DNA of 64,000 nucleotides. Source: Raja brachyura. Lineage: Eukaryota. The translations under genes and the position numbers were made by a program. This document shows, one piece after another, positions 2,202 to 41,080 of the stretch (position 1 is its first letter; each line of letters starts with the position of its first letter). A model generated the notes under the pieces. It did not search any database. It had not been told where the DNA came from and worked only from the letters and a program-made list of their open reading frames with translations. The stretch lies in assembly GCA_963514005.1 (NCBI GenBank), contig OY740802.1, positions 37,882,001 through 37,946,000 on the forward strand, read 5' to 3'.

Positions 2202-2324
2202 TTGTGCCAGAATCACTTGCAGGACTCCACGGCCGTATTGGACTTCCAAGCTGTGAACAAGGCTCTGTTTGCCGAGGCAGTGGAACTGCGCAAAAAGCTG
2301 AGCCATATCACAAGTGCAAAAAAA
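2202..2324 (+). CDS. SPIRE-like: Spire-like exon: C-terminal end of KIND domain
   Basis: tttcag|...|gtaagg, 123 nt, phase 0-0. LCQNHLQDSTAVLDFQAVNKALFAEAVELRKKLSHITSAKK vs recalled SPIRE1 LCAAHL...YQAVCRALFAETMEL...IKSAKE. Confidence 0.93.
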
Positions 2325-2634
2325 GTAAGGGGACCTTTAACAGCTGCAAGCATTTTGTACAGCACCTTTGTTCATGTGGTTAAAAAACCCAAGGGACTTC
2401 ACAGCAGGCCAATGAAACATTCAGGCAAATTAAAGAATGTCAGGAAGAAGAGAGAACGCCAGAATAACGTCATTATTCTCAACATTTGTTGCCTCGGGTT
2501 GTCCAACGGGTGTTTGGATAGAATTGGTGAATTGGTGCAGGGCATGTGGTGAATGATGTTCATGCTGCTAAGGTGCACTTGCGATGGGGAGTGTTAGGAT
2601 ATTGATTAGGATGTAGATCAAGCTATTTATATTC

Positions 2635-2840
2635 ATAGTCGTACAGAGTGGAATCAGGCCCCTTGGCCTGACTTGCCCGCATCAGCCAACATGGCCCAGC
2701 TACACTAGTCCCACCTGCCTGCGTTTGGTCCATATCCCTCCAACCCTGTCCTATCCCTGTACCTGTCTAATCGTTTTTTAAATGTTGCAATGGTCCCTGC
2801 CTCAACTACCTCCTCTGGCAGCTTGTTCCATACACCCACA
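2635..2840 (-). mobile_element. CR1/HER1 LINE 3' fragment
   Basis: Reverse complement of the CR1 3' end (CCCTGCCTCAACTACCTCCTCTGGCAGCTTGTTCCA), also seen at 38330-38690. Confidence 0.75.
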
Positions 2841-3432
2841 GTATACTATCCTAGATGTTGTCAGACATCTTATTGATCACTAATCCGTGAAAGCAGGGAA
2901 GATTCAATCTTCCTCTGATGTTCCTTATTGATGGAAAGGTTTTGAGGTTCAAGGGGATTTGCAGCCAGGATAGTTTTGGCTGGTCCTGTTAGGTTTCTGA
3001 CCAACGAGGCCCCCATGGTCTGTGGATGTGGATGAATAGTACGTGAGCATTAAGGAGAGGTGGTTGGCTAGCAGACTTTTGTTCAGAGGTTTGCCGCATT
3101 CTTCATCATCTGAAGAATATCAGTGTGATCTGAAAACACTCTCAGCAATAATTAGAGATCACCCCAATGTGAACATTGGTGATGGAAGGTGACTAACTTG
3201 GGTGAGTTCCGTTGGAGAGAGGAGACTACACTGAGTGTCAGTAGTATCCTACGACTACAATAATTGCCATTAATAGATTAAATGTTTCCATTTATGAACA
3301 GTATCAGCTGGTTACTATCCTCATTACCCTAGCTTGAATATTCCTTGGATGTGTAAGCCACATGGCCCCTTGATTTTATAGCAACTCGCTATTCTTGCCT
3401 TTGAATTTTTTTCTTTTGATTGTATTACAGAT

Positions 3433-3746
3433 GCACGGTGGCGCAGCGGTAGAGTTGCTGCCTCACAGCACCAGTGACCCGGGTTCCATCCTGACTACGG
3501 ATGCTGTTTGTACGGAGATTGTGCGTTCTCCCCGTGACCTGCGTGGGTTTTCTCCGAGACCTTTGATTTCCTCCCAACTCCTAGTACCTTCAGGGTTTGT
3601 GGTTTAACTGGCTTGGTATAAATGTCAACTGACCCTAGTGTGTGTGTGTAGGATAGTGTTAATGTGCGGAGATTGTTGGTCAGCTCGGACCCGGTGGGCC
3701 GAAGGGACTGTTTCTGCACTATATCTCTAAACTAAATTGAAACTAA
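3433..3746 (+). mobile_element. HE1-like tRNA SINE, near full length
   Basis: A-box-like GGTGGCGCAGCGG, B-box-like GGTTCCATCC, central domain, tail TCTCTAAACTAAATTGAAACTAAA. Confidence 0.85.
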
Positions 3747-4204
3747 ATGATTCCGACTTAATCTAAACAGTTTAGCAGGTACTGGTGAGGTAGTTGCCAT
3801 CTAACCGCATTGCCATTCCCTCTGTGGGTAATTGAATAAGCTGAGGGAGCAGTAATTACATTTAGCCTGCGTTTTGCAAATGCTGCATACTTGGGCATCT
3901 TCTAATTTTGCCAGCCGGCTGAGTGCCAGCAGTGAAGCTACCTTGAGCTAGCTTGTGTGAAGGTAATGCTGCAGTGCTGAACCTCGCTGTTCCATAAATG
4001 GTGGAGTCATTTACATTTACATTTCCACACACTCTGTTGTCAACATGGAGCTCACCCACCACTAACCATACATTTCAGGAAGATATGGCCCGCTCAGAAA
4101 CACCTTGCACCCTTTAATCTCTGAGGAGAATTGAATTGGATAGAATGATTGATGTAGAGGATTTTAGCAAAGCTTCAGACAAGATCCCACGGGGCAGTGT
4201 AACT

Positions 4205-4675
4205 CCCCTTCCCATTCCCACGCTGACCTTCCTGTCCTGGGCCGCCTCCGCTGTCAGAGTGAGGTCGAACACCAATTGGAGGAACAGCACCTCGTATTCC
4301 GTGTGGGCAGCGTACAACCCAGTGGTGTGAATATTCATTTCTTTAACTTCACGTTACCCTTGCATCCCTTCTCTCTCTGTCTCTCCCCAACCCTAGTTGT
4401 GCTAATTTCACTGGCGTCCTGATGAGTTTCATTGTCTGTAACTTCTTCTCACCTAGCCCACTGCTAACAATGGACTGTTGCCTTGATCATTGTTACATTT
4501 TTGCATATCTTTCATTTATTTGTTCTATATCTCTCTATATTGTCGTCTACACCTCTCGCTTCCCTTTCCCCTGAATCTCAGTCTGAAGGTGTGTCTTGAC
4601 CTGAAACTTCTTCCATTTCTTCTCTCCAGAGATGCTGCGTGACCCGCTGAATTACCCCAGCATTTTGTGCCTATC
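4205..4675 (+). mobile_element. Penelope 3' fragment (GIY-YIG C-terminus plus terminal repeat) inserted in a decayed CR1 piece
   Basis: TTGGAGGAACAGCACCTCGTATTCCG encodes LEEQHLVFR. It is followed by the terminal-repeat motif CTCTCCAGAGATGCTGCGTGACCCGCTG. Confidence 0.75.
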
Positions 4676-4766
4676 CCATAGGGCAGGTTGGTCAAAAATG
4701 AAAGCGTCTAAGGGAGAGGGGTGAATTGGATCTGAGACTGCCTCAATGGGTGCAAGGAGGGGGTAA

Positions 4767-5072
4767 TTTAGTTTAGAGATTCAGAGTGGAAACGGGCCCG
4801 TCAGCCCACCGAGTCGCATCGACCAGTGAGTGATTCTCGCACACCAGCACTATTAGTCACACTAGGAACAATTTGCACTTATACCAAGCCAATTAATATA
4901 AACCTGTACCTCTTTGGAGTGTGGGAGGAAACCGAAGATCTCAGAGAAAATCCACACGGGTCACGGGGAGAACGTACAAACTCCATACAGACAGCACCCG
5001 TAGGCGGGATCAAACCCGGGTCTCAGGCGCTGCAAGGCAACAACTCTACTGCTGCTCCACTCTGCCACCCCC
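4767..5072 (-). mobile_element. HE1-like tRNA SINE
   Basis: Reverse complement of the 3433-3746 family, starting TTTAGTTTAGAGAT. Confidence 0.85.
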
Positions 5073-5495
5073 ATTGTAATGATTGGTAACGGTATGGATC
5101 TACAGAGTTGAATAATATCCCTTGCTTTATGCAGCATATAATAATGAAATAGACCACACTGTACAGGCCGCAATGTAGATGTTGCATGATAATACAGATC
5201 TTGGCTGTGTTCTTCATGGTGAGAAAAACAATCCGATATAGAATGTCTGCCAAGGAGTTTTCACCCTAAAACACTAACGTTATTCTCCCTGTAGAAGCTG
5301 CTTGACCCGACTGTTTCCAGCACCTTGTTTCAGATTTTCTTCCTCAGATTAAGTACTTGGAGTACCATATTGCTGATGGCATGGAATAGGTTTGGTGGAT
5401 CCCAACTGGCTGGGCTTGAGTCTAATACTAACAGTACAAATGTGACCTCATTGAGTTGTTTAACCTGGTGTATTATTGATAATTCATTTTTGCAG

Positions 5496-5558
5496 ACTCT
5501 GAAAATACTGCTGGAGGAAGACTCTCTTGATAAAGCAAGCCTGGAGTCTCCATGTTGG
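5496..5558 (+). CDS. SPIRE-like: Spire-like exon: KIND-WH2 linker
   Basis: ttgcag|...|gtgaga, 63 nt, phase 0-0. TLKILLEEDSLDKASLESPCW ends in the conserved W (SPIRE1 NLKKIQEM...KNADW). Confidence 0.85.
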
Positions 5559-5622
5559 GTGAGAACTTCAGAAACTATCTCCACCATCCCACCAGTTCCT
5601 GTTTGCTCACAGTTAACTAGAG

Positions 5623-6152
5623 CAGGGGTGGGCAACCTTGTTCTGTATAGGGGCCGGGACACATGTCTGCGAGCGGATGGCGGGCCACATCTATCACATG
5701 TACACATGGATCCTGGCCCCATCCCGACACTGATGGCAGGCATCAAATCACGTGTTCACATAGATCCTGCCCCACGCCCCTAATTACGGGCACTCACCAA
5801 CATGGCTTATCCACGGACCATTGCCTTGGCTCTGTCCTGAAGGCGGTGACTCAAATACTCACTCGTTCGTCCCCGACCTATTGCCAACCCCGATCCCGAC
5901 AGTGAAGGCCAGAAGGTGCGCGGCCGTGCTGGTGGCTTTGCGCAGTATGCGGTACAGCCAGAGTTGGGCGCTGCTCGCCGCTCACCGCTGCTCGGCGGCT
6001 CCGCCATTGTGGCCTCCAGCGCAGGCCTCCTTTCGTTGTTACGTCACCATGCCATGGGCCCTGGAGGTACCGGAGATGATGGAAGTCTGCGGGCCGGATG
6101 ATTTTGGTTACGGGCCGCATTCGGCCCGGGGGCCACAGGTTGCCGACCCCTG
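5623..6152. mobile_element. Non-autonomous hAT (Charlie-like) element
   Basis: TIRs CAGGGGTGGGCAACCT / AGGTTGCCGACCCCTG. 8-bp TSD AACTAGAG (5615-5622) / AACTAGCG (6153-6160). Confidence 0.88.
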
Positions 6153-6620
6153 AACTAGCGGATTCCAATCCTCTGGTTAGTTTGGCGATATTATTGGCTC
6201 AGTCCCGTTTTAAGGATAAAACCTGCCCAACCCTTGGACTGGTTGAGTGCTTCACTTGAGGGAGCTTTGCATAATTCTGAATGGAACTCAAAACCTGTCT
6301 CAGTGCTGGTGGACAGTTAAACACCCCAAAGCTCTGCAAAAGGAAGCTCTCTTCAGATCCGCACATTCATTTATATCTCAAAGTAGTATTCAGCCAGCCA
6401 CCATAGAAAGTATTTGTTTTCACTGTAAATTCTTATTGTTCTGTAGAAACCTGGAAACACATTTCAATCCCAATGGTAGTACGTGCAGCTCTTTCTCTCT
6501 TCAATATTCTGTCCATTTCGCTGGCTGGAGTTGCTTGGTCTTGAGGCACAATGGCCACTTCATCCCTTTCCCATCCCATCGTTTCTTCGTCTCACTGAAA
6601 ACCAACTGCTTTAAGCCTTG

Positions 6621-7208
6621 AGGGCCAGGCCCACCTGCATGCAACTCAATGCGATGAGCGCGACCTAACGTGGTCGCTTGAGCCATTTAGCGTTGTGGGG
6701 CCAGTCCCACTTCGATCGCCGGAGCCGTGCGGAATTGTGCGGAGTTCGTCCTGACATCGCGCGGGGCTCCGAAAAACTGACCATGTTCAAAAATTCGGCA
6801 TGGCAACGGCTTGTCGGCTCGCAGTCGCCTCGACACATTACACACCAACTCGACGTCATGCCTGTGTCCCTCTCTGTGTGTGGCTCCGTGACCCTCTCTG
6901 TGTGTGGCTCCGTGACCCTCTCTGTGTGTGGCTCCGTGACCCTCTCTGTGTGTGACTCCGTGACCCTCTCTGTGCGTCCCTCTGTCCTGGCGAACTTACC
7001 TTTAAGACTTCGCTCCAACTTTGCGCCGCGTTGCGCCACTCGCCCGACCTCCGCGCGGCCCCCGCTGCCGGTTTGGTCGCGCTCGCCGCATGCAGGCGCA
7101 TGCTGGTGGGAACGGCCCTGTACAGGGATCACCCGACCTCCGCGCGGCCCCCACTTCTAGTTTGATCGCGCTCACCGCATGGAGTCGGACACTGGTAGGA
7201 CAGGCCCT
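6621..7208. mobile_element. PIF/Harbinger-type MITE (older copy)
   Basis: Homologous to 16549-17081. Degenerate TIRs AGGGCCAGGCCCACC / GGTAGGACAGGCCCT, flanks TTG/TTA. Confidence 0.82.
6866..6987. repeat. 24-bp minisatellite (~4-5 copies) inside the MITE
   Basis: Unit CCGTGACCCTCTCTGTGTGTGGCT repeated. It explains the (VCGSVTLS)n and (PHTERVTE)n ORFs. Confidence 0.9.
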
Positions 7209-7678
7209 TTAATCTACCCTGGTCCCTGAGCAGGCTGAGCCAGCAGAGCAAGCCCCAGTATACGTCACTAACCCAAACCAGCAAAGATTTAATGAGATAT
7301 GTGATCAGCTTTGCTCTTCGCAAATGATCTTGCTGCTGGTTTATTGCTGAAGACTGCGTAAAGTATCAAATTTCACCAACCTCTGGTTTTTCAAGTATGT
7401 GGTTAGGCAGCTACAACATTGCAGGACAATTACAAAATGGAATGGATTTTGCTTCATGATTAGGAATTTTTAAATGGGGAAAGTGAACGGTAGAAGAGGT
7501 AAACAGCTCTGAAATGGTGCAACCATTGCGAGTTTGTACTCTAACCTGTTATCCGCGGCAAGCTGTGACAATGTTACTTTTTCAAAAAATCTTTTGTCGA
7601 TTAATTTTTTAATTTGATGCATACATGGCACAATTTAAAAACCTCAATGCTTGGTTTAGTTCAACCCTGCTTTGATCA

Positions 7679-7918
7679 AATGTTCAAGAAGGAACCGCAG
7701 ATGCTGGAAAATCGAAGGTAGACAAAATTGCTGGAGAAATTCAGCGGGTGCGGCAGCGTCTATGGAGCGAAGGAAATAGGCAACGTTTCGGGTCGAAACC
7801 CTTTGGGTTTCGACCCGAAACGTTACCCATTTCCTTTGGGTTTCAACCCGAAACATTACTTATTTCCTTCGCCCCATAGATGCTGCTGCACCCGCTGAGT
7901 ATCCAGTAATTTTGTCTA
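7679..7918. mobile_element. Palindromic Penelope terminal-repeat remnant with 13-bp TSD
   Basis: Inverted arms centred on GGGTCGAAACCC-TTT-GGGTTTCGACCC. TSD CCTGCTTTGATCA at 7666-7678 and 7919-7931. Confidence 0.8.
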
Positions 7919-8055
7919 CCTGCTTTGATCACTTTTGCCTTGATTTAATGGTGGAGCTGGCAACAGGCTGACATTGCAAGGCTCCCGTTCCTGCCCAAAT
8001 TGTTTTCCGTGACTGATGAGCACGGTCCTTACCATCTCCCTCGTCTCTCACCCAG

Positions 8056-8220
8056 AGCAGAGAGTGGTTTCAGCTGATGAAGGAGGTGCGGGGTGGCGTG
8101 CGGCTGCGTGACACCAGTGAGAGAAGTTACACGCCTGTTCCCGCGAAGCCACAGCCATCTTCATTCATGAAAATCCTGGATGACATAAAATACAAACGCT
8201 ACATCCTTCACAAGGTGGCG
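8056..8220 (+). CDS. SPIRE-like: Spire-like exon: WH2-A and WH2-B
   Basis: cccag|...|gtgagt, 165 nt. SREWFQLMKEVRGGVRLRDTSERSYTPVPAKPQPSSFMKILDDIKYKRYILHKVA aligns without gaps to recalled SPIRE1 [20 protein letters not shown]...LMDDIRCKRYTLRKVM. Confidence 0.95.
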
Positions 8221-8894
8221 GTGAGTTGACTACCTGCTGAGTGTGAGGGTCGGCCTGCAGTCATGCAGTTTGGGGGTGAGGATGTGGGCTTTTTGATCGG
8301 AAATGCCATTCCAAAGATTCTTGTTGAAATGCATCAGTCTTGGAATCCTGCATGTGGCGGCAATTAGAGTAAAATAACATCTGACTTGTACAACTAACAT
8401 AAATTGTGGTGGGTTATCAATTGTCAAATCCTCTTTGTCGCCTTCCCCTCTGTAAATGTACAGAGCTTCATGTGCTTCCAATGAGCTACCTAGGTCGTCT
8501 TTGTGTAATCATCACAAATAAACCTTGGTATTTGCTATTTTCTGGCTCCACTGTGCATCGGGCTTTGGAATGCATGATGCAGCAGCCGTTCACACACACG
8601 TGTACTGACGAAAGATCAAATTGGTTAAGTGCTCTGACAGAAGTTAACCATTCCGAATACTGAAACTGCATTAGTTGAAGACCAATACAATGATGCAATA
8701 GGTTGGGATTCCCTGGTGTCCTACTGATACCTATTGGAACTTGGACACGACATGGGGATTGGGAAAATGAAGGAAGCAAAGGTGGGGTACTTGGCAAAGA
8801 GCTGAGCAGTCAGGTGCAGGTACACTTCCCTAGTGTAAAGTAACGGATGGTGGTGGTGAAACAATAGATTTGACTTGTATTGCAAAGCTAATAT

Positions 8895-9440
8895 TGTTCA
8901 GCAAAGCAAATTGCTGGGGGAACTCGATGGGTCTGGCAGGATCCTGTGGAAGCAAAGGGATAGTTGACATTTTGGGTTGAGATTGGACTGTAATTGGACT
9001 TTGTGTGGAGAGGGGAGATGGGCAGAATGAGGCAGAGGCTGGCAGGTGATGTCAAAACAAAGTGAGGTGGGAGATGGTGAGTGAAAGCTAGGGGAATAAG
9101 ATGAAGAGGGGGAAGGAAGGGCCACTCTATCCTCCCCCTCTCCTACCTGGCTCCTTCTTTCCTCTTTTTTGTCTTTGTTCTGCTTTGTCTCTAGTTTCAT
9201 GCACCCGCCACTGCCTCCCTAACCCACTCCTTCCCCACGGACTTCATCTATCCATCCCCTCTCTCATTTACCTTCACCCATCGTCTACCTGCCTCTGCCT
9301 CATCCCTCCTCCTCGACTTTATTCTTTCTATCTCCCCTCTACACTCAGTCCTGAAGCAGATCTCAATCTGAAATGTTGACCATCGCCTTGCCTACACAGA
9401 TGTTACTTCATCCACTGAGTTCCTCCAGCAGTTTGCAGAT
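8895..9440. mobile_element. Decayed inverted Penelope terminal repeats
   Basis: GCTGGGGGAACTC...GGCAGGATC arm and the opposite ACAGATGTT...CTGAGTTCCTCCAGC arm, with a purine/pyrimidine switch near 9120. Confidence 0.55.
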
Positions 9441-10077
9441 GCTTTAATCTGAAGCAAAGTCTTTAGTCTCTCTTATAATCTTCAGAGCTTCAAGCTCCAT
9501 CAATTATTGACTATATTTCACAAAATATATAGTTGATTGTTATTTGAACGTATAATTATCTTGCATTCAATATTAGTGCTGGGCCTATATTGTCGATTAA
9601 TAGAATTTAAGGAGGCAAATATCTGTTGAGGATCAAGTCTGAAATGACTCTCCATAAATAAGATGAGTGCAGATAGCTCCGGCTACACTTTAATTGCATT
9701 GGATGCCATTTCTTCTGCGACAATTTGTTTGCTCTTTATCGACGATTGCTCTTTCTGTTTGTGCTGTTTTAATTGAGCAATAAATGTGTGTCCGAAGGCT
9801 TCACTAAGTTGGCAGAGTGTCCAAAGGATGTGATGTGCAGAAATGGCCAATAAAAACCTTCCTGTCGCATGTCTTTGTAGCTTTTGGGCAATATTCCAAG
9901 TTCTTGCCAGAGATCCTTTCCACTTTAATGATGGTGATTAAATATTAATAGAACCCTTTAGCTAAAACTGCTGTCCCTGTACAGCCCAGTGTGGCTTTCG
10001 GTGAGGCTAATGTAGACAGTTAGCCAAAAGGACCACATTTCTTTCAAATCTAACTTCACTCTTGTGTTCATTTTCAG

Positions 10078-10152
10078 CTCATTAATGATGAACCGAGAGC
10101 ATCTTGCAAAGCGGTGCTGGACTTGGGCCTCTTGAGGTCCCTGTTGAAACCT
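10078..10152 (+). CDS. SPIRE-like: Spire-like exon: degenerate WH2-C
   Basis: ttttcag|...|gtacgt, 75 nt, phase 0-0. LINDEPRASCKAVLDLGLLRSLLKP vs recalled [29 protein letters not shown]. Confidence 0.85.
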
Positions 10153-11029
10153 GTACGTATAAGTTGTTTACCTGTATACCAATATACAAAGCTCAATAGT
10201 TTAGAATGACTAATATACTGTAAGACCTAACAAATGAAAGAAAATTGATTTATTTGGCTGAATGCTTAAATAGAATTTGTTCCCCATGTTTTTGCATGAG
10301 AAAACAGGAGCAAGATGAGGCTACCAGACCCCTCAAGCCTGTCCCACAATTCAGTGTGATAATAGCCAATATTCCCCAGATCTTCACGCCTCTAGTAATT
10401 TACCAGTACTAGCAAGCATTTAGTTTATCAGTACTAGTAATTTAGTAGTTGCTAGTAAATTGCAACTGCTATTAGTTGTTAATAACTAGTTGTTTTCACA
10501 TAGCCCTCAGTTCCTGGATCTTTCACATATTTATGTGTCTGCGCTTTAAATACATCGAATGATCCAACCTCCACCATCCTTGAGGTCAGGTAATTCACCA
10601 TTCACTCCCCTCTGAGAGAAGACATTTCTACACGCCTTGGCTTTAAATGACAGACCTCTTATTCTCTACCTCTGTCTCCTTGTTGATGATATTCCCAAAT
10701 ATCTCAGCAACTGTCAAGACTCCGCAGTGAGCAACTTGTAACATGCACGGCTCTCTGGCCATGTACACCACTCCTAGCTATCATGTCAGTATACAACACC
10801 TCGCGCCATCACACAACCATTTGTAATATATTTAATCCTCTATGCATATTTACCAACAACCTTTCATTTTTTATGATTGCAAGTACAGAGATGTTTATAG
10901 TGGCCTACCTTTTGGCGGCTGTGTGATAAAAGTCAAACTTGATTTAATGCATTGGGATATAATTATCAAGTGTTTGCATTGATTATGAAAGTTAGATATT
11001 ACTGCAGAATGTAAGGAAACACTCAAGTT

Positions 11030-11352
11030 GGTTTAGTTTAGTGATACAGCATGGTAACAGGCCGTTCAACCTACCGAATCCATGCCAACCATTGATCACC
11101 CGTACACTGGTCTGTGTTGGACCACTTTCTCACCCACTCTCTACACACTAGTGGCAATTTACAGAAGCCAATTGGCTTGCTGTGCACGTCTTTGAGATGT
11201 GGAAGGAAACCAGAGCGCCTGGAAGGAACCCACATGGTCTCAGGGAGAACATCTAAACTCTACATGGACACTACACAGCACTCGAGGTTAGGATCGAACC
11301 CAGGTTTCTGGATCTGTGAGGCAACGACTCTACTGCTGTGCCATTGTGCTGC
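11030..11352 (-). mobile_element. HE1-like tRNA SINE
   Basis: Starts TTTAGTTTAGTGATACAGC and ends TACTGCTGTGCCATTGTGC; same family as 4767-5072. Confidence 0.8.
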
Positions 11353-11418
11353 CCGTGTGCCACTGTATTTAAAATGGTTGATGCTACAAAGCTGAGTGCT
11401 TATTTTGCGCTTTGTCAG

Positions 11419-11545
11419 GCGACTGCAAGGAAGCTCCGAGACGTGCCGCCCTCCAGCCCTTGTTTGCATGAGATGCTGATGAGCGAGATACAATCGGCCG
11501 TTAAAAAGCTGCAACCAGTGTCCTCTGATGGGGAAGACCAATCAT
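11419..11545 (+). CDS. SPIRE-like: Spire-like exon: linker-3 and WH2-D
   Basis: tgtcag|...|gtaagt, 127 nt, phase 0-1. ATARKLRDVPPSSPCLHEMLMSEIQSAVKKLQPVS vs recalled [34 protein letters not shown]. Confidence 0.93.
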
Positions 11546-13319
11546 GTAAGTTCACGAGGGCATGCGGGGATCTGGTCTCTGGATCTCCTTTCTAAAGTGT
11601 GTGTGTGGGGGGGGGGGGGGGAGGGGGAGGGTGCGTGTCTCTCAAGACCATCTACTTTCCTAGTTTACTTGGAGATTCAACTGGTGACTAAGAGAAAAAT
11701 TTAAAAAATATATAGTCATGAGGCAGGAGTAACCAACCACTTTGCTCTTCATTTGTTCAGTCTGGTTAATCGTCTACCTCTACTAATTCTTCCCATGCCT
11801 CTTGATTTTGGTACCAGAAAATGATCTGCCTTGTATAAGCTCAATGACTTGGCATCCACAGCCCTACTGTGGAAGGGAATTCTGAAGGTTCCACTTGGAG
11901 AAGTGTTCAATGGTCGATCCTCCATCCACCCCACCAGCTCTGCAAGCAGTGAAACATTACGCACATGCATCTGTTCAACCTTTAAGAATTTTCTTTTGAG
12001 GGTGATGATATTTCTGAGCTTTTTGATAAGGCGCCACTCAACACCAGCAAACCCGAAACACATGGCGCAGGTAGAGGGAACTGATATGAAACTGCTCAAG
12101 TAATTGGCACCAGGCAGTTGTGACGAATGCTTGTTTTGCATTCTGGCAGAAGAAGAATGGTGGTTTAACATATTGTCCAGCTAAACTCCTGTGTTACCTG
12201 CTTTTATTTTGGTATACCACCCTATTTTCTGAACTCTTTCTCCTGAAAGTTAAATCTCCATGATCTTAGTTAATCTGCAACTGCATTTTCAGTGACTGTT
12301 TAATCAAATCCGTTCACTTCTATTGATGCTACTAATTCATTCATATTGTTGTGACTACTTTTCACATATTCCTATCACATGGAAATGTCAATTGGCCTTG
12401 AGTCTAAGGGCACTGAACAATCCCATTCCCCAATAACTTTTCCAAGCACCTACTCTCCACACATTCCCATTGGATTAGTTCTACATTCCCATCCAATCCC
12501 ACAGTCCACTCGCTATATATGACACATTGTGATCAATGAACCATCCAACTTTGAGATGTGGGAGGAAACCAAATCACCTGGGGGAAAGCCATGTGGTGAT
12601 GCAAACTCCATACAGACAGCACCCGAGGTCCATATTGAACCCTGGGCTGTGGGAACGGAGGCAGAAGCTCCACTCGTTCTGCCACCAACCACTACCTGTT
12701 CTCAACCCCATGCACACAATGTCATTGTAAAGATTTTATCTCCTGCACTTGCTCTTCATCAGACCTTGACCAGGTGTATCCAATTTCTTTAACAATGCAT
12801 GAAAGCAGCTGTGATTAAGAACATTATAATGCTTTCACAGCTTTAAGAACAGACTTCTTCAAAAATGCACCTTGCTTTCAGCAGATCTTCAGTGCCATGG
12901 ATCGGTTGCTAATCAAGTGAAACGTGTATATAACGTACTAGCATGAAGATAGAATGGCCCACTTGTCCCTGGCAATGGTTTGTGCCAGATTGAGAGCCAT
13001 AAACTAGTTCTAGCCGTATAATGTAATGTTCTATAGTTTGCCCCTTTTGCGACTTGTAGATTGCAGATGAAAGCTGAGGGCCCTGGTAATTTTGCACTGT
13101 AATAGTTGAGCTCTGTGTTCATTGAATTTGTTCCACATTGTGGCAATGTAATTGAATGTTTGGGCGTTCTCCTGTGTAAATAGCTTAAGTGATTTTCTGC
13201 ACTAGCTGCCTGTGAATCAGTGCTCGGCTTTCCAAAGTGTGTGCTTTCTGGCCAACACTGGGGTTGAAATAGCAGACGGTTCCATATTTCAAATGCGTGT
13301 TTATTTCCCGCCTTCCTAG

Positions 13320-13450
13320 TGAGCAGTCCGGATAGTTCCGTACAAACCAGGCTACAGTATCAGGACCTTCATTCTGACCACAAGACAGCTGGTCAACACC
13401 AACAGATGAGGAGATGCAGGAAGCCACAATTCATGGACCCGGAGACTGAG
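13320..13450 (+). CDS. SPIRE-like: Spire-like exon: central linker (position of the myosin-V binding motif)
   Basis: ttcctag|...|gtaaga, 131 nt, phase 1-0. The only open frame is (L)SSPDSSVQ...QQMRRCRKPQFMDPETE. Sequence similarity is weak but the phases are correct. Confidence 0.7.
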
Positions 13451-14137
13451 GTAAGAGCTGGAGATGCAGAAATCACGAGATGCAGCCAGGGAAATCGCAT
13501 CCACCCAAGGACTGATTGCTGATCACACGTGGTGGATTTATCCAGCTGCATTACTTGATGGCATCAGTTGGATTAATTAGACACTGTAATTTGTCCCCCA
13601 GTGTAAGTGAGTGGCAAAAATCAAAGGGGAGTTGCCGGGCGTATGAGAGGGAATAAGTCGAAGAGATGCAGGGAGATCGGGCACTGGGCAATGGACTGGT
13701 TGGGACACAGGGAAGTGCAGATGCTGGAATCGTACAACACAAAGTGGTGGAGTAACTCAGCAGATTAGACAGGCAGCATCTGTGGACAGAATGGATAGGT
13801 GACATTTTGGGTTGATCCTGTCAGTGTGTTTGTAGGAAAGGAAAGAAAGTTGGAAAAAAGCTCTTGGAATTGTTCTGCCTGTATCTGGCTTGGACTCGAG
13901 GGGCTGAATGGTTGCCTTCTATATTGGAATCAGTGCATCAGTGCAATCTGAGCAGCCGTATTAGACGATTTTGCATACTTGAATTAAACTTAAATGGGTA
14001 TTCTTCCCCTATGGAGCTTTGCTATTTGAACCAGATTTGGTGTTTTTATATCTGTCTATTTTCTCAATCCCTTCTGGATGCAAATGTGTTAATTACTGGT
14101 TGGTTCTCTCCATGTTGATGGCACAATGTGTTTCTAG

Positions 14138-14210
14138 GAAGATCTCTCTGGCTTGGAGCAGAACAGTGCACGGGATGGCCAAACACTGGATGTGGTCTAT
14201 AAACATGCAG
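14138..14210 (+). CDS. SPIRE-like: Spire-like exon: central linker
   Basis: tttctag|...|gtaggg, 73 nt, phase 0-1. EDLSGLEQNSARDGQTLDVVYKHA is needed to bridge the phases of the neighbouring exons. Confidence 0.65.
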
Positions 14211-14452
14211 GTAGGGGTCCATCTGGTGTTGGATGGGGTCAAGAGGGCACAGATCATCTCGGGCAGGATCGGGAATAGTGAGTTTGAGATGCCGTGAGGC
14301 ACTCTGTATATATGTGGAACTATAAGAGTCTGAGGAAGAGAAACTGAGCAGGAATCTTGCAGGTCCTATAATTAAAGTGTTGATTTTTGACCATTGGCTA
14401 ATTCCCATTTCTCTGCTGCCCCCTCTCCAACACAAACTCTTCCTGTCCCTAC

Positions 14453-14958
14453 TAGGGTCGCCGACTTTCTCACTCCCAAATAAGGGACAAAAGGTCAAAA
14501 TATGGGACAAATTCCCGACGGCAATTCTTCTGCCGTGGCTGGGTGAATGATGAGTTGGCCCGGGTGCCGGACTGCACACAAAGCCCAGGCGGCGGGCCAG
14601 CTGAGGAGTTTTTGCCTGCGTGACATCGCGCACAAAGTCCGGCACCTCATCCAACTCGTGAATCATTGGCCATGAGAAGGAGGGGTGGTGGTGTTGGTGG
14701 TAAGCGACGGTCCGAAGGTCGGAAAGCTGGCCGGGCTGCCGACCAACGGGGTCACGGGCGAGGCGCTGCTGCTGCACTCCATCAGCTGCACTACGTCATG
14801 GCGGGTGAGGCGGGGCCGGACGCGGCGCTCCGACCCGACAGTCCCCTCGACCCAGTATTAGCAGTCAAATATGGGACAAGGGCGGTCCCGTATGGGACAA
14901 ACCAATTTAGCCCAATATACAGGATGTCCCGGTTAATACGGGACAGCTGGCAACCATA
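14453..14958. mobile_element. Non-autonomous hAT element
   Basis: Ends TAGGGTCGCC / GGCAACCATA with repeated GGGACA subterminal motifs. Degenerate 8-bp TSD GTCCCTAC/GTCCCCAT. A second partial copy starts at 41081. Confidence 0.8.
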
Positions 14959-15090
14959 GTCCCCATTGACAGTGTGCTCCATACAGGGACCTCATTTTGT
15001 TTAATATGTTACTCCAGTTAATTATTGTTCTTGTCCAATGTTCTTTTTTAAAAAAAAAGTTTAAAAAAATCTTTTCTGCTTCTTCTCCAG

Positions 15091-15233
15091 ATGTGTCAAC
15101 AGAAAGGGAGTCAACAAAGCCTTCATCCTGGCTGGATGTGACGCTTGTGAGGCATTCGATCAACAAATATAAGTTCCAATATCCTTTACAAGCAGGCAAA
15201 CCTTTTGGCATGGGTTATGAATTTGTAGAAAAT
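15091..15233 (+). CDS. SPIRE-like: Spire-like exon: pre-Spir-box linker
   Basis: ttctccag|...|gtaagc, 143 nt, phase 1-0. Contains RHSINK (recalled SPIRE1 RRHSIEK). Confidence 0.8.
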
Positions 15234-16288
15234 GTAAGCTCCAGTTAGCTTTGCATTCTGTTTTCCAATAATTAATGAAACTGCTTTATTGAATTGTAAA
15301 CTTCTGAGGTTTGCAAAATGTGCATGGTTTTTGACATTTCAACAAGATTCTCAGCTATTGAAAACCACACTGCAGCTGCTGGATATCTGAAATAAAGACT
15401 TGAAGTGCTGGAAACACCCCGCAGGTCAGGCCGCATCTGTGGAAAGAAAAACAGGGTTAACATTACAAGTTGTAGATCCTCCAGTATTAAATGTTAGCTC
15501 TGTTTCTCTTTCCACAGATGCTGCCTGACCGGTTGAGTGTTTCCAGGAGGATTTTCTGTTGATTTGACAACAAAGTGATCTGCTTCAGTAATCAGGATAG
15601 GCGAGGGGAGAAATGAATGACATACCAGCCAATCACTGATGTTTCTCTTTTTGCTATTGGAAATGTAGTTTGAGTCTCGCTTGTTGATTTTAAAATAATA
15701 TCACTTTGGGTTTAAGAGTTCCCAGACAGAGTTTTGGTTTTAATTTAAGGAAGTTCAACTCTCAGTATTAAATGGGTGGCAAATTAATGACCTTTTACAG
15801 ACAAAAATGAGAACCTTATAAATAGAGAGTTGTGCAGGTCTGGGGATTGGTTCTGCGGGAAGCAACCGAATAAACAGGTTTGAATATTTCTCTCTGGGTT
15901 ATGAGATGAAAAGCCTTTCAACTAGTAGTGAGATGTAACAATTAACAGGACAGGAAAAGTTAGAAAAGTTAGTAAAAATGTGTAAATGGAAGGCATCACC
16001 TTGGGAATTGTACACAAAGGTTGCTTGGTATCCTGATGATATGCATTACAATTGAAGGAACATAAAAATGATATTTCTGCTGACTCTCCTTTAGTGCTGA
16101 TATGTGGAGGTCACATTTTTTGAATGCTTTATTTTAAGTTGGTAACTATTTTGTGACCATTTCAACAGTTTCCCGTTCTAAAGCTCTGAAACGATTGCAA
16201 TGACGGCCTTTTCATTTTAACAGCCGGATGTGTGAAATGATCCCGATGCATTTCTGGCTAAACTCGATCTGATTTTTCTCTTGTTCAG

Positions 16289-16393
16289 GAGGAATTCCAC
16301 TTTTCTTCATCGCTCTACGTTAAGGAACTCGCGTGTGTCTGTCAGACCATCGCCAAGAGAGAAGTGAGAAACCGTAAAATGGTGAAAGACAAG
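16289..16393 (+). CDS. SPIRE-like: Spire-like exon: Spir-box (shortened)
   Basis: tgttcag|...|gttagc, 105 nt. EEFHFSSSLYVKELACVCQTIAKREVRNRKMVKDK vs recalled [31 protein letters not shown]...KGK. Confidence 0.88.
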
Positions 16394-16548
16394 GTTAGCA
16401 CTGAAATGCCTGATTAGACTGCAATGATTTCCCGCAACCTCAAATATCTGGAAAAGACACACCTGTGTTCATATGGTCCCATGCATTACTGGGCTGTCTT
16501 AGTTCTTGCTATATGGTTCTTGCCATACAAGAAGGCTTAGGTGTTTAA

Positions 16549-17081
16549 AGGGCCTGTCCCACCAGCATGCAACTCCATGCGATGAGTGCGACCTAACGTG
16601 GTCCGGTTGAGCCGTCAGGCGTCGCGGGGCCGGTCCCACTTCGTTCGCCGGAGCCGTGCGGAATTGTGCGGAGTTCGTCCCGACATCGCGCGGAGCTCCG
16701 AAAAACTGACCATGTTCAAAAATTCCGCACGGCAACGGCTTGTCGGCTCGCTGTCGCCTCGATGCATTACACACCGCCTCGACGTCGTGCCTCCGTGAGC
16801 CTCTCTGTTGGTGCCTCCGTGACCTTCTCTGTAGGTGCCTCTGTGATCCTCTCTGTGTGTGGCTCACTTTGCCTCACTCAAGTTCGCCTCACTTTGCGCC
16901 GTGTTGCGCAACTCACCCGACCTCCGCGTGACCCCTGCTGCCGGTTTGGTCGCGCTTGCCGCATGCAGGCGCATGCTGGTGGGACGGGCCCTGTACGGGG
17001 ATCACCCGACCTCCGCGCAGCATCAGCTGCCGGTTTGGTCGCGCTCACCGCAAGGAATCGCATGCTGGTGGGACAGGCCCT
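16549..17081. mobile_element. PIF/Harbinger-type MITE
   Basis: Perfect 22-bp TIR AGGGCCTGTCCCACCAGCATGC. 3-bp TSD TAA at 16546-16548 and 17082-17084. Confidence 0.9.
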
Positions 17082-17600
17082 TAAGGATGAACAATTCAAG
17101 TTTTCATTATTATTATCTTTATTGTGAATGGGTTTGAATGTGGCTCCATGGGGCTTGGCAGCCTCCCAAACTGCCAAAGGAGGTGGTAGAATTGGGCAGA
17201 ATCGCAGAGGCAGGACTTCAATAGGCATGGCACACAAGGTGGCAGACCTAGTCACACAATGGGTAAAATGGGCGAGCATGACTGATGGGCCGAATGGCAT
17301 GTATTTGTGTTGTATGAATGAGTCTATAACCTGCTGGGACTTTGGGTAGTGGATAATTTGATGTCACCTACTCGCAGAACAATTGGCAGAGGAGCAACTG
17401 TCTTGTGGAGGGTAGGTTTGAACATTTGGCCAACAATCTACAGGTGTTTTTTCTGCTCTCTGGGAGCATTGAGTAGTCCTGAGCTCAGCAACATTGAGAA
17501 GCTGTTGGAGATTGGAATGTATGCCTGGGATTATTACTGTTTAAACTGAAAAACATTTCACATGTTGTCGGAGACTAAAATGAAAATCCTTTTTTTTCAG

Positions 17601-17666
17601 TTTTGTTTCTATTGTCAGAGAGAGTTTTTCTTCACTTGGGCTCTCACCTGTCACTTCTGTAAAAAG
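17601..17666 (+). CDS. SPIRE-like: Spire-like exon: first half of FYVE-type zinc finger
   Basis: ttttcag|...|gtacga, 66 nt. FCFYCQREFFFTWALTCHFCKK vs recalled [24 protein letters not shown]. Ends in phase 0 rather than the expected phase 2. Confidence 0.93.
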
Positions 17667-17829
17667 GTACGACTATTGTTAAGATTTTTTTTAGTTCACC
17701 AATGTGTTAATGTAGAGGCTTGTGCACATCCAGCAGTTTATAACTATTCCAGAAAAGAAATGTAGACATTTGCAAAAGGAACATAACAGAAGGAGACACA
17801 AAGAACTGCAATTTTAAAGGAATTTTAAT

Positions 17830-18100
17830 GGAAGCAGACCCTTTGGCCCATTGAGTCCATGCTGTTCACCCATTCATGTTGGTTCTATATTATCCCACTT
17901 TCTCATCAACTCCCTAAACACTAGTGGCAATTTTAGAGGCAATTAACCAACCAACCCATACATCTTTAGGTAGGAAATCAGATCATCCAGAGGATCCCCA
18001 CATAGGCACAGGACGTGTAAACCCTGCACAGACAGCACCCAAGGTTAGGATTGAACTCTGGCATCTGAGGCAGCTCTACCAGCTGTGCCACTGTACCACC
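17830..18100 (-). mobile_element. HE1-like SINE, decayed
   Basis: CAGACAGCACCC...GAGGCAGCTCTACCAGCTGTGCCACTGT motifs. Confidence 0.7.
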
Positions 18101-18709
18101 AATGCTGGAATCTTGAATAAAATACGGTGCTGGAATAACTCACTGGTCAGGCAACATCTCTGGAGGACATGGATGGGAGAGGTTTTGGGTCGGGACCCTT
18201 CTTCGGAATTGGACTGAAGAGTTCTGACCCAAATCATTACCTATTCATTCCCTCCAGAGAGACGGCCTGACCTGCTGAGTTACTCCAGCACATTGTGGTG
18301 TTGTGGACGGAGCTTAAGTTCCACCATACAGATAGGAACGTATCGCTTTGCTTAGCTACTTGGGTTCTACATTCTAGATTTAATTGTTCTACCCATGGGT
18401 GAAGGTTGCAGACTCGGTGCAATGGGTTAAGGGGAGCCGCCTATTCCAAGTTGGGTGTGGGCTTAACAAGGACAATATGGATCTTTTGGTTTTGGACTCT
18501 TGGATGAAGGCAGTCTAAAAGCATTCAATGTCTTTTACAGCAATAATACGAATACAACTGACATAATTCCAATCAAGAAGTTAGACTTCCTTGGCCAAAG
18601 GCCTTTGTACTAAATAACTATTGGGTTGAGTAACGTTGCCTGATGTTAATCCAATCTATGGGCTTCAGTCTCCTTGCATAATTAATAACAAATGTGTTTC
18701 ATTTTACAG

Positions 18710-18737
18710 ATAAATCTGTTCAGAGTGCTCTACGAAG
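18710..18737 (+). CDS. SPIRE-like: Spire-like 28-nt FYVE micro-exon, read in a shifted frame
   Basis: ttttacag|ATAAATCTGTTCAGAGTGCTCTACGAAG|gtaaga. The ancestral frame reads *ICSECSTK (SPIRE1 PVCSQCCKK). The frame actually inherited reads INLFRVLYE. Confidence 0.88.
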
Positions 18738-19377
18738 GTAAGATTGCCAAAACTACTCGAAGTGTAAAGTTCCTATTATCCAAATCAAACTTGATTCCCC
18801 ACCACCACAATATGTATCTGTAATTGTGAAAGCTCTAGCATCTGAAGGCTGATTATTAGCATGCAAACTATTTTAAATTGGGGTATTCATTTAACAGTAA
18901 ACAATGTACAGACAAATAAAAGTTCACTGACTGAACACTGTAGGTTTAAACGTTGATATGTCTCAATGTATCAATCTTGCGTGCCTGAGGATGAGAGAGG
19001 TTCCTCCATTGTGAATGCCTGTATTTTGATCCATAGAAACTGTTCTAGCTGCTAAGAGAGTGTTCTGCATTAAGAATAGCTCTAATGTTGTCTCTAATAT
19101 TCCTTGGCAAACAGGGCAGCGTTGGATTAGAAACTCCCTTTCTCTCATTCCCAACTTATCACTTGCTGTGATTCTCATTACTTTTATACTCGTCAAAGCT
19201 GCTGCTACCAATCCATCCTTCAAGGTGCTTTTGACACCTCTTGGCAAACACACTTGTCTCTACTTTTCCGTTTAAGTGCTTGAAGCTTGCCTTTGAATGC
19301 ACTCCTCCCAGGTGTTGTCTGGCAGTGCCTCCATTCTGCCACTGGGAATGACGCTTAACCCCATCCACGGGGGTTAA

Positions 19378-19562
19378 GAGGAGGTCGTTGAGGCAGGGAC
19401 TATCCCAACATTTAGACATGTACATGGATAGAACAGGTTTGGTGGGATATGGACCAAATGCTGGCAGGTGGGACTAATGTAGCTGGGACATGTTGGCTGG
19501 TGTGGGCAAGTTGGGCCGAAGGGTCTGTTTCCACACTGTATCACTCTATGACTCTATCTATG
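19378..19562 (+). mobile_element. CR1/HER1 3' fragment
   Basis: GAGGCAGGGACTATC...GGGCCGAAGGGTCTGTTTCC...CTCTATGACTCTAT tail. Confidence 0.78.
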
Positions 19563-20943
19563 ACACAGCCCAGTGACTGAATAAAGACACTGCCATGTAT
19601 GGTTAGGAAAGTTGCAGATATTGGAATTCTGAAATAAAAATAGCTGGGGAAACTCAGCAGGTCAGGCAGCATTAGTGGAGAGCAAGGCAAGGTTAAAGTT
19701 CCAGTTTGAGGAGCATTTGCTGTATACCTTGTACTTGCTGATCTAGTTTTGGCTTCATCTCCCCAAATCTTTTGAATGTAATTATTTATTTTTCAATGCT
19801 CTTTTCTCTGCTACTCGACTTCTTTCCATCTCTGCAGCTTGTTCGCATCATGTTGCCATTGCCCGTCTCTAAATGCTGCCCTTCTCCCTTCAGCACTACC
19901 TGCCCTGATCTTTAATGTGTGGTGCAGATGTTTGCAATGGAGATCTATTCTCCTGGACCTTCCGTTTGTTGTTCCTTTTTCTGACATCGTTGCAGGCCAT
20001 GTCTTTGGCCAAGCATCAATCTAACCCTTTGCTCCAGGTTCCATGCTGATTGAAGATGCAAAGTGCAGTCTCTCGAGGTTGATTTACTTTCCTCTGGGGG
20101 AAGTTGGTCTTTATCTCCACTGGAGTGAGGACAAACAATGAGCATTTTACCTCTGGGTGATGTGCAGCTCTGATTAGCTGCACAATGTAGCTAAGGGTGC
20201 TGCCCACACCCGAGGATATGTCAATGTTGCTATCTCCCCAACCTTGAGCTTCACACCTGCACTTGTCTGAATACAATCCCAAGTTCATCCACGCTGCCCA
20301 AGAGAAGTGAGACTTGGTTGGCACTGTGTGCCCAAGTTTGCCAGGTTGACCAAGTACTGCCGTCCATCACTAGGGTTTTGGGGCAGATGTATGGTGGGTG
20401 TATTAGTAACCTATTAGTAACAAAGGTTTGCTGCGTTTGTTTGGCTGATATGTGTGGAACTAAATCCTCCACTCTCTGGTGCAACGCAAGAACTAAAGCT
20501 GTGGCAACACCATTTCCAACTGAGCCTTCTGATACAGACATTGTGTCATTCCTGATATCATGGAAAAGTTAGTCCTTTCAAATAGGCCCCATTCTATCGC
20601 GTGGCCAAGAAAGATGTGGAACATTTGTGCTGATGATGCTGAAATCCAAACTTAATAATAGGCTAAATCCTACATTAGTGAATTAATGCACCTCTTGCCC
20701 ACTGGATCAATGGTGAGAATGGGGCACTTCCAATGCAAGTAGGTGATGCCTCAGTCAGCAAAAGAGAGTTGATCCCATAACTGGCTGAAGCCTATGTGAG
20801 GAGAACACTGAATCACAAGCAGCTGCTCAATTCAATTAGTTCCACACAAATTATCTTTAAATAGCATAGATTAAAGAAAAGGAGGAATGGATGTGAAAAT
20901 ATTATATTATGAATAAACTCATCTAGCTATTCATATCTTGTAG

Positions 20944-21073
20944 ATGCAAATCCTCTCCCATGTATGCACCTTCCTGTAATCTGTAAGCCATTGGCAGCGA
21001 CTGCAGATGCTGGTGTCCAGGTAGAGACGTGCCGATGTGGATGGGAAAAGGTACAACAGTGGGACACGTCCGA
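20944..21073 (+). CDS. SPIRE-like: Spire-like exon: FYVE insertion loop
   Basis: cttgtag|...|gtgagt, 130 nt, open in phase 1-2: (D)ANPLPCMHLPVICKPL...WDTS. Aligns to recalled MRLPSKPYSTLPIF if 1 nt was lost near the exon start. Confidence 0.8.
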
Positions 21074-40825: not shown

Positions 40826-41080
40826 GAATACATGAGTACAACAGGCAGTGCAAAAAGAGGAAGGAATCCGAGTGCAGGATATCATGTTCCAGCTACTGAA
40901 AAAGTGCCAATGGTGGCTGTGACTTCGGCCTTGGGAACCCTGGCGTTGGCTTCATAAAAAAAATGCCCCTCTTCTGTTTGGAATGAGCTGCCAAAGGAGG
41001 TAATTGAGGCAGGGATTATCGCAACGTTTACGAAACAATTAAACAGCTACATGGATAGGACAGGTTTAGAGGGATATGGG

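Follow-up and report, generated by a model that had tools for sequence, protein, structure and literature searches.

A SPIRE3 gene in the skate Raja brachyura and a compensated frameshift in its FYVE finger

The SPIRE3 locus of Raja brachyura comprised 16 exons, all on the + strand, of which 13 lay within the window (the whole 64-kb stretch of DNA that was analysed) and three, encoding KIND, lay upstream of it. The joined exons gave an ORF of 572 aa with no stop, and all 15 introns were of the GT-AG type. This was an intact and real gene. A chance origin of the Spire signal was excluded by the identity of exon 6 to shark orthologs and by exon 14, which was the sole 28-mer this similar to the SPIRE1 exon among the 63,972 compared on the + strand of the window. 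An earlier sequence-only reading had placed 13 phase-compatible exons of a Spire gene at 2202–21073. The multi-exon + strand gene was confirmed, but the interval contained 12 exons, and the thirteenth exon of the window was located at 26007–26061.

Exons 1–3 were found 7894–7651, 4161–4130, and 1092–934 bases before the window by tblastn with orthologs and by splice sites. Exon 4 (2202–2324), the end of KIND, was located in the same way, and it matched Pfam KIND on its own (E = 0.0016), which bore out the KIND end proposed earlier. The full shark and chimaera orthologs reached 137–149 bits against a Pfam cut-off of 26.7, and the chimaera protein matched the SPIRE1 KIND in PDB at E = 4e-27. The N-terminal KIND of the SPIRE family was thus recognized by Pfam both in exon 4 and in the orthologs. 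Exon 5 (5496–5558) was the KIND-WH2 linker, with 29–42% identity to orthologs. Exon 6 (8056–8220) carried WH2-A and WH2-B and showed 65–74% identity to three named shark proteins, compared with 41 and 38% to the genome's two further Spire loci. Exon 7 (10078–10152) encoded a degenerate WH2-C (42–61% to chondrichthyan orthologs, 24–28% to the skate's own SPIRE1/2), and exon 8 (11419–11545) encoded WH2-D (51–75% to orthologs). WH2 A, B, and D aligned with those of SPIRE1/2, exons 6 and 8 being 36–49% identical to the skate's own copies, which placed the gene within the two to four tandem WH2 repeats of the family. Of the four WH2 repeats proposed from the sequence, three were therefore recognizable and the third was degenerate. 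Pfam WH2 detected none in the window protein, and chicken SPIRE1 itself was detected only at E = 0.8.

Exon 9 (13320–13450) was a linker occupying the place of the myosin-V motif (GTBM). The motif was not recognizable there, and the exon had no match in PDB at E ≤ 10. The counterpart exon at C17, the SPIRE2 locus, matched the SPIRE2-GTBM 5JCY_B at 7.6e-9. The canonical GTBM was absent from all five chondrichthyan and all 13 other SPIRE3-type sequences, with a pattern that also missed three of the nine SPIRE1/2 sequences. A loose basic-hydrophobic-acidic run persisted at this position, and such loose myosin-V-binding motifs can work (PMC11231147). The variable linker of exon 10 (14138–14210; phase 0 to 1), which was called by reading the sequence, kept the frame and was 42% identical to that of sawshark. 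Exon 11 (15091–15233) preceded the Spir-box and showed 48–67% identity to orthologs. The altered Spir-box lay in exon 12 (16289–16393), with 60–74% identity to orthologs and 28–34% to coelacanth SPIRE3 and the skate's own SPIRE1/2; its C-x-C pair was present in all five chondrichthyan sequences.

Exon 13 (17601–17666) encoded C1–C4 of the FYVE finger and the hydrophobic loop, and was 77–91% identical to orthologs. It contained one extra base in its terminal A-run and thus ended in phase 0, whereas exon 13 of the skate's own SPIRE1/2 ended in phase 2. As a consequence, exon 14 (18710–18737), a 28-nt exon sharing 20 of 28 nt with the SPIRE1 exon, was read in a new frame as INLFRVLYE; its old frame, a stop followed by ICSECSTK, held the zinc ligands C5/C6. 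The exons were phase-compatible because exon 14 was read in a frame other than that of SPIRE1/2. Exon 15 (20944–21073) started in phase 1, and a net loss of 4 nt within its first 17 nt restored the ancestral frame ahead of the SPIRE3-type motifs C-x-H-L-P and W...QQWD. The new frame covered exon 14 plus at most 17 nt of exon 15, or 12–16 codons. Exon 16 (26007–26061), the last coding exon, stopped before C7/C8, and no C7/C8 exon was found downstream of it within the window. The resulting protein had lost C5/C6 and stopped at or before C7. The Spir-box and eight-cysteine FYVE_2 finger of the family were not found in full: the Spir-box was altered, C1–C4 were kept, C5/C6 were out of frame, and C7/C8 were absent. 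The FYVE domain claimed earlier accordingly held for its first half. The incomplete finger weakens the label of a canonical SPIRE and leaves descent from SPIRE3 untouched. The sequence-only reading did not mention a fixed compensated frameshift removing half of the finger.

The frameshift was read from DNA in the skate and in organism B, and from proteins in the other species. Two offsetting indels were shared by several species on this basis: the INLFRVLYE-frame peptide was common to three sharks and the chimaera (four named chondrichthyans) with 78–100% identity. NCBI gene models agreed with the new frame. No indels occurred in exons 13–15 in the short-read contigs of organism B, and the exon differences between organisms A and B were too few for dN/dS. 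The splicing of exons 13–15 as described here is predicted from gene models and conservation. In a census of 288 proteins, 223 had C1–C4, of which 199 kept C5/C6, 18 showed the new frame (16 from the four named chondrichthyans and two further proteins), and six were classed as other. C5–C8 were all kept in the 13 other SPIRE3-type proteins. When exon 14 was compared with 24 other vertebrate SPIREs, the old frame scored above the new frame in every case. The distance from C4 to CxH was 17 in all five chondrichthyans and 18 in 11 of the 13 other SPIRE3-type proteins, the remaining two having no motif match. Exon 15 was 40% identical to coelacanth vs. 14% to the skate's own SPIRE1, and its similarity exceeded the shuffle maximum (42) in only six of the 13 other SPIRE3-type sequences. 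The C-x-H of exon 15 had been considered a product of the frameshift, and this was dropped because coelacanth and others carry it.

Exons 13 and 14 were the most conserved among chondrichthyans (77–100%, compared with 47–63% for the whole protein). Under constraint on the old frame only, eight invariant sites would be kept per lineage with a probability of 0.21 to 0.0005, depending on divergence; they were kept in six of six other sequences, which are related to each other, the sites having been chosen post hoc. Even after a very long time the old-frame cysteines were still encoded, which fits constraint on the new frame, and other species may put both frames to use. In whale shark, the model lacked exon 11 and ended out of frame, and the catshark models lacked exons 9–10 and stopped early; these defects may be annotation gaps or decay. 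The sawshark, bamboo shark, and chimaera proteins ended at a Cys aligned with C7 in the multiple alignment alone, and the end of protein P0155 was similar to that of exon 16. Because P0155 lacked a terminal Cys, conservation of this residue was not taken as a signal. The last exon showed no significant homology to coelacanth or caecilian in any frame by pairwise score.

Four protein queries recovered three Spire loci in the R. brachyura genome and no more, with SPIRE1 and SPIRE2 on other contigs. The C4 locus grouped with SPIRE1 (100/100), and C17 carried the SPIRE2 GTBM and a fused KIND exon, at a place where skate SPIRE3 kept the intron between KIND exons 3 and 4. The skate's own SPIRE2 sequence in the tree was partial (498 aa), its exon K not having been found. 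In the tree of 39 proteins, including 10 outgroup-type sequences, five chondrichthyan and 13 other sequences, among them coelacanth and caecilian copies, formed a SPIRE3-type clade (100/99). The AU test rejected joining it to SPIRE1 (p = 0.00015) or SPIRE2 (p = 0.00013). The clade was thus separate from both and contained chimaera and bony-vertebrate members. The skate protein was 47% identical to that of the chimaera and 30–31% to those of coelacanth and caecilian. Both SPIRE3 branches were long, and long-branch attraction may add to the clade support. The sequence-only reading had proposed a fast-evolving third paralog rather than the SPIRE1 or SPIRE2 ortholog; both of these were found elsewhere in the genome, and the proposal stands.

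SPIRE3 was named in print in 2019 and 2024 as the third gnathostome SPIRE, which is reported from chimaera and sauropsids and which mammals and euteleosts have lost (Kollmar et al., bioRxiv 10.1101/591974; PMC11231147), so the premise of only two described jawed-vertebrate genes was out of date. The KIND intron was lost in SPIRE2 (bioRxiv 10.1101/591974), and the skate gene shared the kept intron and the altered third WH2 with the published subfamily. From the chimaera member and this altered WH2, we infer that the clade found here probably corresponds to published SPIRE3. With SPIRE1 and SPIRE2, the skate gene had in common KIND, the WH2 cluster, the Spir-box, the first half of FYVE_2, and exon boundaries that coincide, the 28-nt exon among them; it differed in its 30–34% identity, altered Spir-box, half FYVE, and lack of the acidic KIND insert and of a recognizable canonical GTBM. 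The other SPIRE3-type proteins (13/13) had eight FYVE cysteines, whereas in the chondrichthyan copy the frameshift removed C5/C6 and truncation removed C8 or C7/C8.

Genes for PRELI and beta-tubulin were found within about 100 kb of both SPIRE3 and SPIRE1 in the skate, where SPIRE3 sat in a PRELI-ATP5E-TUBB-NELFCD block. These common neighbors pointed to a genome-duplication origin and favored the retained ohnolog among the options of the earlier reading; SPIRE3 most likely arose in an early vertebrate genome duplication. A look-up of the neighbors of bony-vertebrate SPIRE3 found nothing beyond the map position of chicken SPIRE1L on NC_006088.5, at 84.5 Mb. We take NC_006088.5 to be chicken chromosome 1, and the chicken PRELID3B-TUBB1 block is presumably assigned to a different chromosome. 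A search for papers on SPIRE synteny or the paralogon found none, and the neighbors bear on a possible origin of SPIRE1–3 in the vertebrate genome duplications, a question the 2019 preprint left open (bioRxiv 591974).

Several other histories were considered. The chondrichthyan gene could be a fourth ohnolog, sister of bony-vertebrate SPIRE3, with reciprocal loss in the cartilaginous and bony lineages. The apparent position of chicken SPIRE1L off the PRELI-ATP5E-TUBB-NELFCD block (on the chromosome assignments assumed above), an identity to the coelacanth and caecilian copies similar to that to SPIRE1, and the long stems on both sides are consistent with this. However, the branching within the clade matched the expected species order where the sequences were named, and both groups shared exon-15 motifs, a short KIND loop, and the apparent loss of canonical GTBM. 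No second SPIRE3-type locus was found in the R. brachyura genome, relocation of the gene in chicken accounts for its map position, and the 2019 preprint counts chimaera SPIRE3 with the rest (bioRxiv 591974). We therefore regard a fourth ohnolog as unlikely. A duplicate of SPIRE1 or SPIRE2 specific to elasmobranchs, the other option raised earlier, fits the database name "spire homolog 1-like" and the SPIRE1-like neighbors, but the relatives in chimaera, coelacanth, and caecilian and the AU tests make it the least probable of all.

The frameshift through the zinc ligands and the old-frame stop resemble decay, and the out-of-frame end of the whale shark model could be read likewise, as if the gene were dying or the frameshift were an assembly error. 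Yet the frame was open across 16 exons, organism B had no exon indels, the new-frame peptide recurred in four named species with separate assemblies, and the protein was still 47% identical to that of the chimaera; a pseudogene or artefact is thus highly improbable. A working gene with a vestigial C-terminal module, that is, a soluble KIND-WH2 nucleator in which the new-frame peptide has no specific role, would account for the loss of four of the eight zinc ligands and the early stop of the catshark models, and a KIND-WH2 fragment restores melanosome transport in part (PMC7359353). Exons 12–14 nevertheless ranked with the best-conserved portions of the gene in chondrichthyans, unlike a vestige, and this explanation is improbable.

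An intact 16-exon elasmobranch SPIRE3, its FYVE finger half-erased by a compensated frameshift common to sharks and chimaera, probably gives the best account of the locus, with a likely role as a formin-partnered actin nucleator that has a rebuilt membrane-targeting end. The frameshift would predate the shark-chimaera split, and the new-frame peptide would be under purifying selection. That split is dated to about 400 million years ago. KIND would still bind FMN formins and WH2-A/B/D would still bind actin, and we infer a nucleator with altered targeting. The zinc ligands of FYVE are paired as C1/C2/C5/C6 and C3/C4/C7/C8, so the two-zinc cross-brace presumably cannot form, and vesicle/RAB targeting and KIND-FYVE self-inhibition would change with it; roles of the SPIRE FYVE are described in PMC5021521 and PMC7359353. 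C1–C4 may bind one zinc, and contact with membranes may persist through these cysteines, the FFFTW loop, and the basic-hydrophobic new peptide. More tentatively, with somewhat less than even confidence, cartilaginous fishes may have rebuilt the membrane/RAB module of SPIRE3 about 400 million years ago by a frameshift across two introns, into a single-zinc or lipid-anchored module from C1–C4, a new Spir-box C-x-C, and the new-frame peptide; it would be under strong selection in a differently targeted, possibly oocyte-linked nucleator. The AlphaFold2 models were unusable, with a mean pLDDT of 30.0 for chimaera (12 rows) and 38.0 for coelacanth SPIRE3 (22 rows). ESM Atlas returned Spire clusters only for the whole protein, and its matches to the C-terminal part were under 0.9, with TM under 0.4, and gave no usable lead.

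The third vertebrate SPIRE is already published, and the chondrichthyan frameshift was not found in print. The words "frameshift," "pseudogene," and "synteny" were absent from the main texts of bioRxiv 591974 and PMC11231147, and no SPIRE3 was found in the text supplements of PMC11231147. A literature search on spire, frameshift, shark, and FYVE gave nothing on point by title and the start of the abstract; the preprint supplements and the figures of both papers may show whether the frameshift had been noticed before. Fixed compensated frameshifts are rare, with six high-confidence genes reported: RAB36, ARHGAP6, NCR3LG1, RASSF4, SPATA24, and Wds (Biba et al., 2022, PMC8935012). These share with SPIRE3 two offsetting, clade-fixed indels, 7–99 nt apart there and about 36–45 coding nt apart in SPIRE3. 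No SPIRE is among them, and the SPIRE3 case is very old, spans two introns, and strips a folded domain of metal ligands. The net loss of 4 nt, if a single event, exceeds the 1–2 nt filter of that study, and the rewritten stretch shows high conservation, in contrast to the spanned regions there, which a section title describes as less conserved. SPIRE3 offers a case, open to test, in which protein sequence arose anew from another frame within a folded domain. The skate gene is also a natural FYVE-loss variant for testing SPIRE targeting and the inactive state. The new-frame peptide belongs to the best-conserved portions of the protein, and the old frame stays readable in the DNA.

The Spire gene on the + strand of the window (contig C22) was delimited by combining a scan for splice sites, visual inspection of the sequence and tblastn searches with orthologous proteins. 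Twelve exons occupied 2202-21073, where the sequence-only reading had counted 13; the last exon was found at 26007-26061, and three KIND exons lay upstream of the window. Once joined, the exons encoded a protein of 572 aa free of internal stops, and all 15 introns were bounded by GT-AG. Many high-copy short repeats were present in these introns.

With four protein queries, at least three Spire loci were detected in the genome, on contigs C22, C4 and C17; one query gave a further match on contig C15 (E=6.3), which contained stops. The Spire on contig C4 was 73% identical to chicken SPIRE1 and grouped with SPIRE1 in the tree. The Spire on contig C17 matched the myosin-V binding motif (GTBM) of human SPIRE2 (PDB 5JCY_B, E=7.6e-9) and had a fused KIND exon, as described for SPIRE2. 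The window protein shared 30% identity with the former and 34% with the latter, 56-63% with "spire homolog 1-like" of sawshark, bamboo shark, catshark and whale shark, 47% with the chimaera protein, and 30-31% with the coelacanth and caecilian "spire-like" proteins. The KIND domain of the ray's own SPIRE1 (contig C4, 28,622,460-28,622,580) read ALDWGL, as in SPIRE2 and SPIRE3, and bony-vertebrate SPIRE1 has ALDYGL; the W is possibly ancestral for vertebrates.

The tree comprised 39 rows, hand-chosen from 288 proteins plus three script-assembled genes, and most of its labels were inferred and not taken from record names. Five chondrichthyan rows clustered at 100/100 and 13 other SPIRE3-type rows at 97/96 (two of them, coelacanth and caecilian, assigned by record name); together they made up one clade (100/99), to which neither SPIRE1 nor SPIRE2 belonged. 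In AU tests, a placement of the chondrichthyan rows with SPIRE1 was rejected at p=0.00015 and one with SPIRE2 at p=0.00013. These tests, and the presence of both genes on contigs C4 and C17, bore out the sequence-only reading of an extra paralog and not a SPIRE1 or SPIRE2 ortholog. Since both SPIRE3 stems were long, a model artefact behind the clade is possible. Signs independent of the tree were the short KIND loop, the altered third WH2 and the exon-15 motifs. The exon-15 score was 75 with coelacanth, compared with 16-29 for SPIRE1, SPIRE2 and the unplaced vertebrate rows; the shuffle maximum of 42 was exceeded by 6 of the 13 SPIRE3-type rows.

The name SPIRE3 is already in print (bioRxiv 10.1101/591974; PMC11231147; bioRxiv 2020.06.19.161109). 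These sources describe SPIRE1-3 in jawed vertebrates, with SPIRE3 present in chimaera, lost in mammals and euteleosts, and lacking the third WH2 in sauropsids. Thus, a third vertebrate Spire gene is already known, and the usual two-gene description assumed beforehand is outdated (bioRxiv 10.1101/591974; PMC11231147). The first of these preprints left the relation of SPIREs to genome duplications unsettled.

The window gene differed in its FYVE finger; a complete finger has eight zinc-ligand cysteines, C1-C8. In SPIRE1 and SPIRE2 of the ray itself, the exon carrying C1-C4 ended in phase 2, and the next exon of 28 nt encoded C5/C6. The corresponding C1-C4 exon of the window gene had one base more at its end and finished in phase 0. 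The 28-nt exon was kept (20/28 nt identical to that of SPIRE1, and unique among 63,972 window 28-mers); it read INLFRVLYE in the new, shifted frame and a stop followed by ICSECSTK in the old, ancestral frame. In comparisons with other vertebrate SPIREs, the old frame scored higher than the new one in 24 of 24 cases. Exon 15 started in phase 1, and the ancestral frame was regained by the C-x-H-L-P motif. The distance from cysteine C4 to this motif was 17 residues in all five chondrichthyans and 18 in 11 of the 13 other SPIRE3-type rows (two unmatched), which places a net loss of 4 nt within the first 17 nt of exon 15, with 12-16 codons rewritten. The window protein stopped before C7/C8; the sawshark, bamboo shark and chimaera proteins stopped at the Cys aligned with C7.

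Among 288 proteins, C1-C4 were present in 223, of which 199 kept C5/C6 and 18 showed the new frame (16 from four named chondrichthyans, plus two further rows). The remaining six were a chimaera model running into an intron, four SPIRE1-type forms without the motif and one spurious match. C5-C8 were kept in 13/13 other SPIRE3-type rows.

Assembly error as the source of the frameshift was ruled out because short-read contigs of a second organism from another study spanned exons 13-15, with every gap letter for sequencing run X3 falling within introns. Run X1, which may be the source sample, agreed with X3 on these exons. Exons 13 (77-91%) and 14 (78-100%) were the most conserved among chondrichthyans. 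Under a null model with constraint on the old frame only, the probability of one lineage keeping eight invariant new-frame sites was 0.21, 0.059, 0.008 and 0.0005 with rising divergence; the sites were kept in 6/6 other sequences, which are related, and were chosen after the fact. Counted against selection were the whale shark model (P0004), which lacked exon 11 and ended out of frame, and the catshark models (P0014/P0131-P0133), which lacked linker exons 9-10 and ended early. These defects may represent annotation gaps or lineage-specific decay.

Clade-fixed compensated frameshifts are described as rare (PMC8935012). The words "frameshift", "pseudogene" and "synteny" were absent from the main texts of bioRxiv 10.1101/591974 and PMC11231147, and literature searches on SPIRE synteny or paralogon and on a shark Spire FYVE frameshift returned nothing on this variant. 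The preprint's wording "except ... some SPIRE3" may hide an awareness of it. As far as these searches reach, the window gene is a known gene with an unreported frameshift variant.

The FYVE domain of SPIRE1/2 is reported to bind membranes, to take part in RAB27 binding and to fold back on KIND (PMC5021521; PMC7359353). Because four of the eight zinc ligands are missing, the two-zinc fold would not form and these roles would change. KIND and WH2-A/B/D were kept, and formin-coupled actin nucleation is therefore a probable activity of the predicted protein. That C1-C4, the FFFTW loop, the C-x-C newly present in the Spir-box and the basic-hydrophobic peptide of the new frame are strongly conserved points tentatively to a module rebuilt for binding membranes or a partner. 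Myosin-V binding for all SPIRE3 seems doubtful from the sequences, and structure predictions on proteins of this type were uninformative. Chicken SPIRE1L was the top down-regulated gene in selected follicles, with counts falling from 25 in small follicles to 0 (PMC7367319); this hints weakly at a function in oocytes.

On contig C22, PRELI (37.777 Mb), ATP synthase epsilon (37.80 Mb) and beta-tubulin (37.81 Mb) preceded the window gene (37.874 Mb), and the sole TH1/NELFCD match was 1.3 Mb further on. On contig C4, beta-tubulin (28.43 Mb) and PRELI (28.50 Mb) flanked SPIRE1 (28.54-28.71 Mb). The nearest scored tubulin on contig C17 was 4.6 Mb from SPIRE2, and PRELI matched five contigs of the genome. 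We take the C22 and C4 blocks to correspond to human 20q13 and 18p11, two regions that are paralogs from genome duplication, and we infer that SPIRE3 arose by this route. NC_006088.5 is presumably not the chicken chromosome matching the PRELI/ATP synthase epsilon/tubulin block. Chicken SPIRE1L is placed at NC_006088.5:84500921-84516885 (84.5 Mb; supplement of PMC7367319), apparently off that block. Either relocation of the gene within the chicken lineage or the existence of a fourth ohnolog would account for this position. An array of several dozen tubulin C-domain matches, nearly identical to one another and some of them truncated, was seen on contigs C47 (0.32-1.83 Mb), C294 and C1519; it is a candidate expansion or pseudogene array.

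An uninterrupted ORF of 1269 aa was located in an AT-rich stretch at 48781-52587 (+) of the window. It contains an endonuclease domain (E=3.9e-15) as well as a reverse transcriptase domain (E=8.9e-39) and is apparently an intact non-LTR retrotransposon ORF2. Reverse-transcriptase fragments, which we assume to be CR1/L2-like, were found at 21128-21797, 30967-31785, 38890-40951 and 59178-60124. Outside the window, at about 38,014,961 (-) of contig C22, an open stretch of 308 aa (L020), presumably resembling a RuvB-like helicase, is possibly a processed pseudogene.
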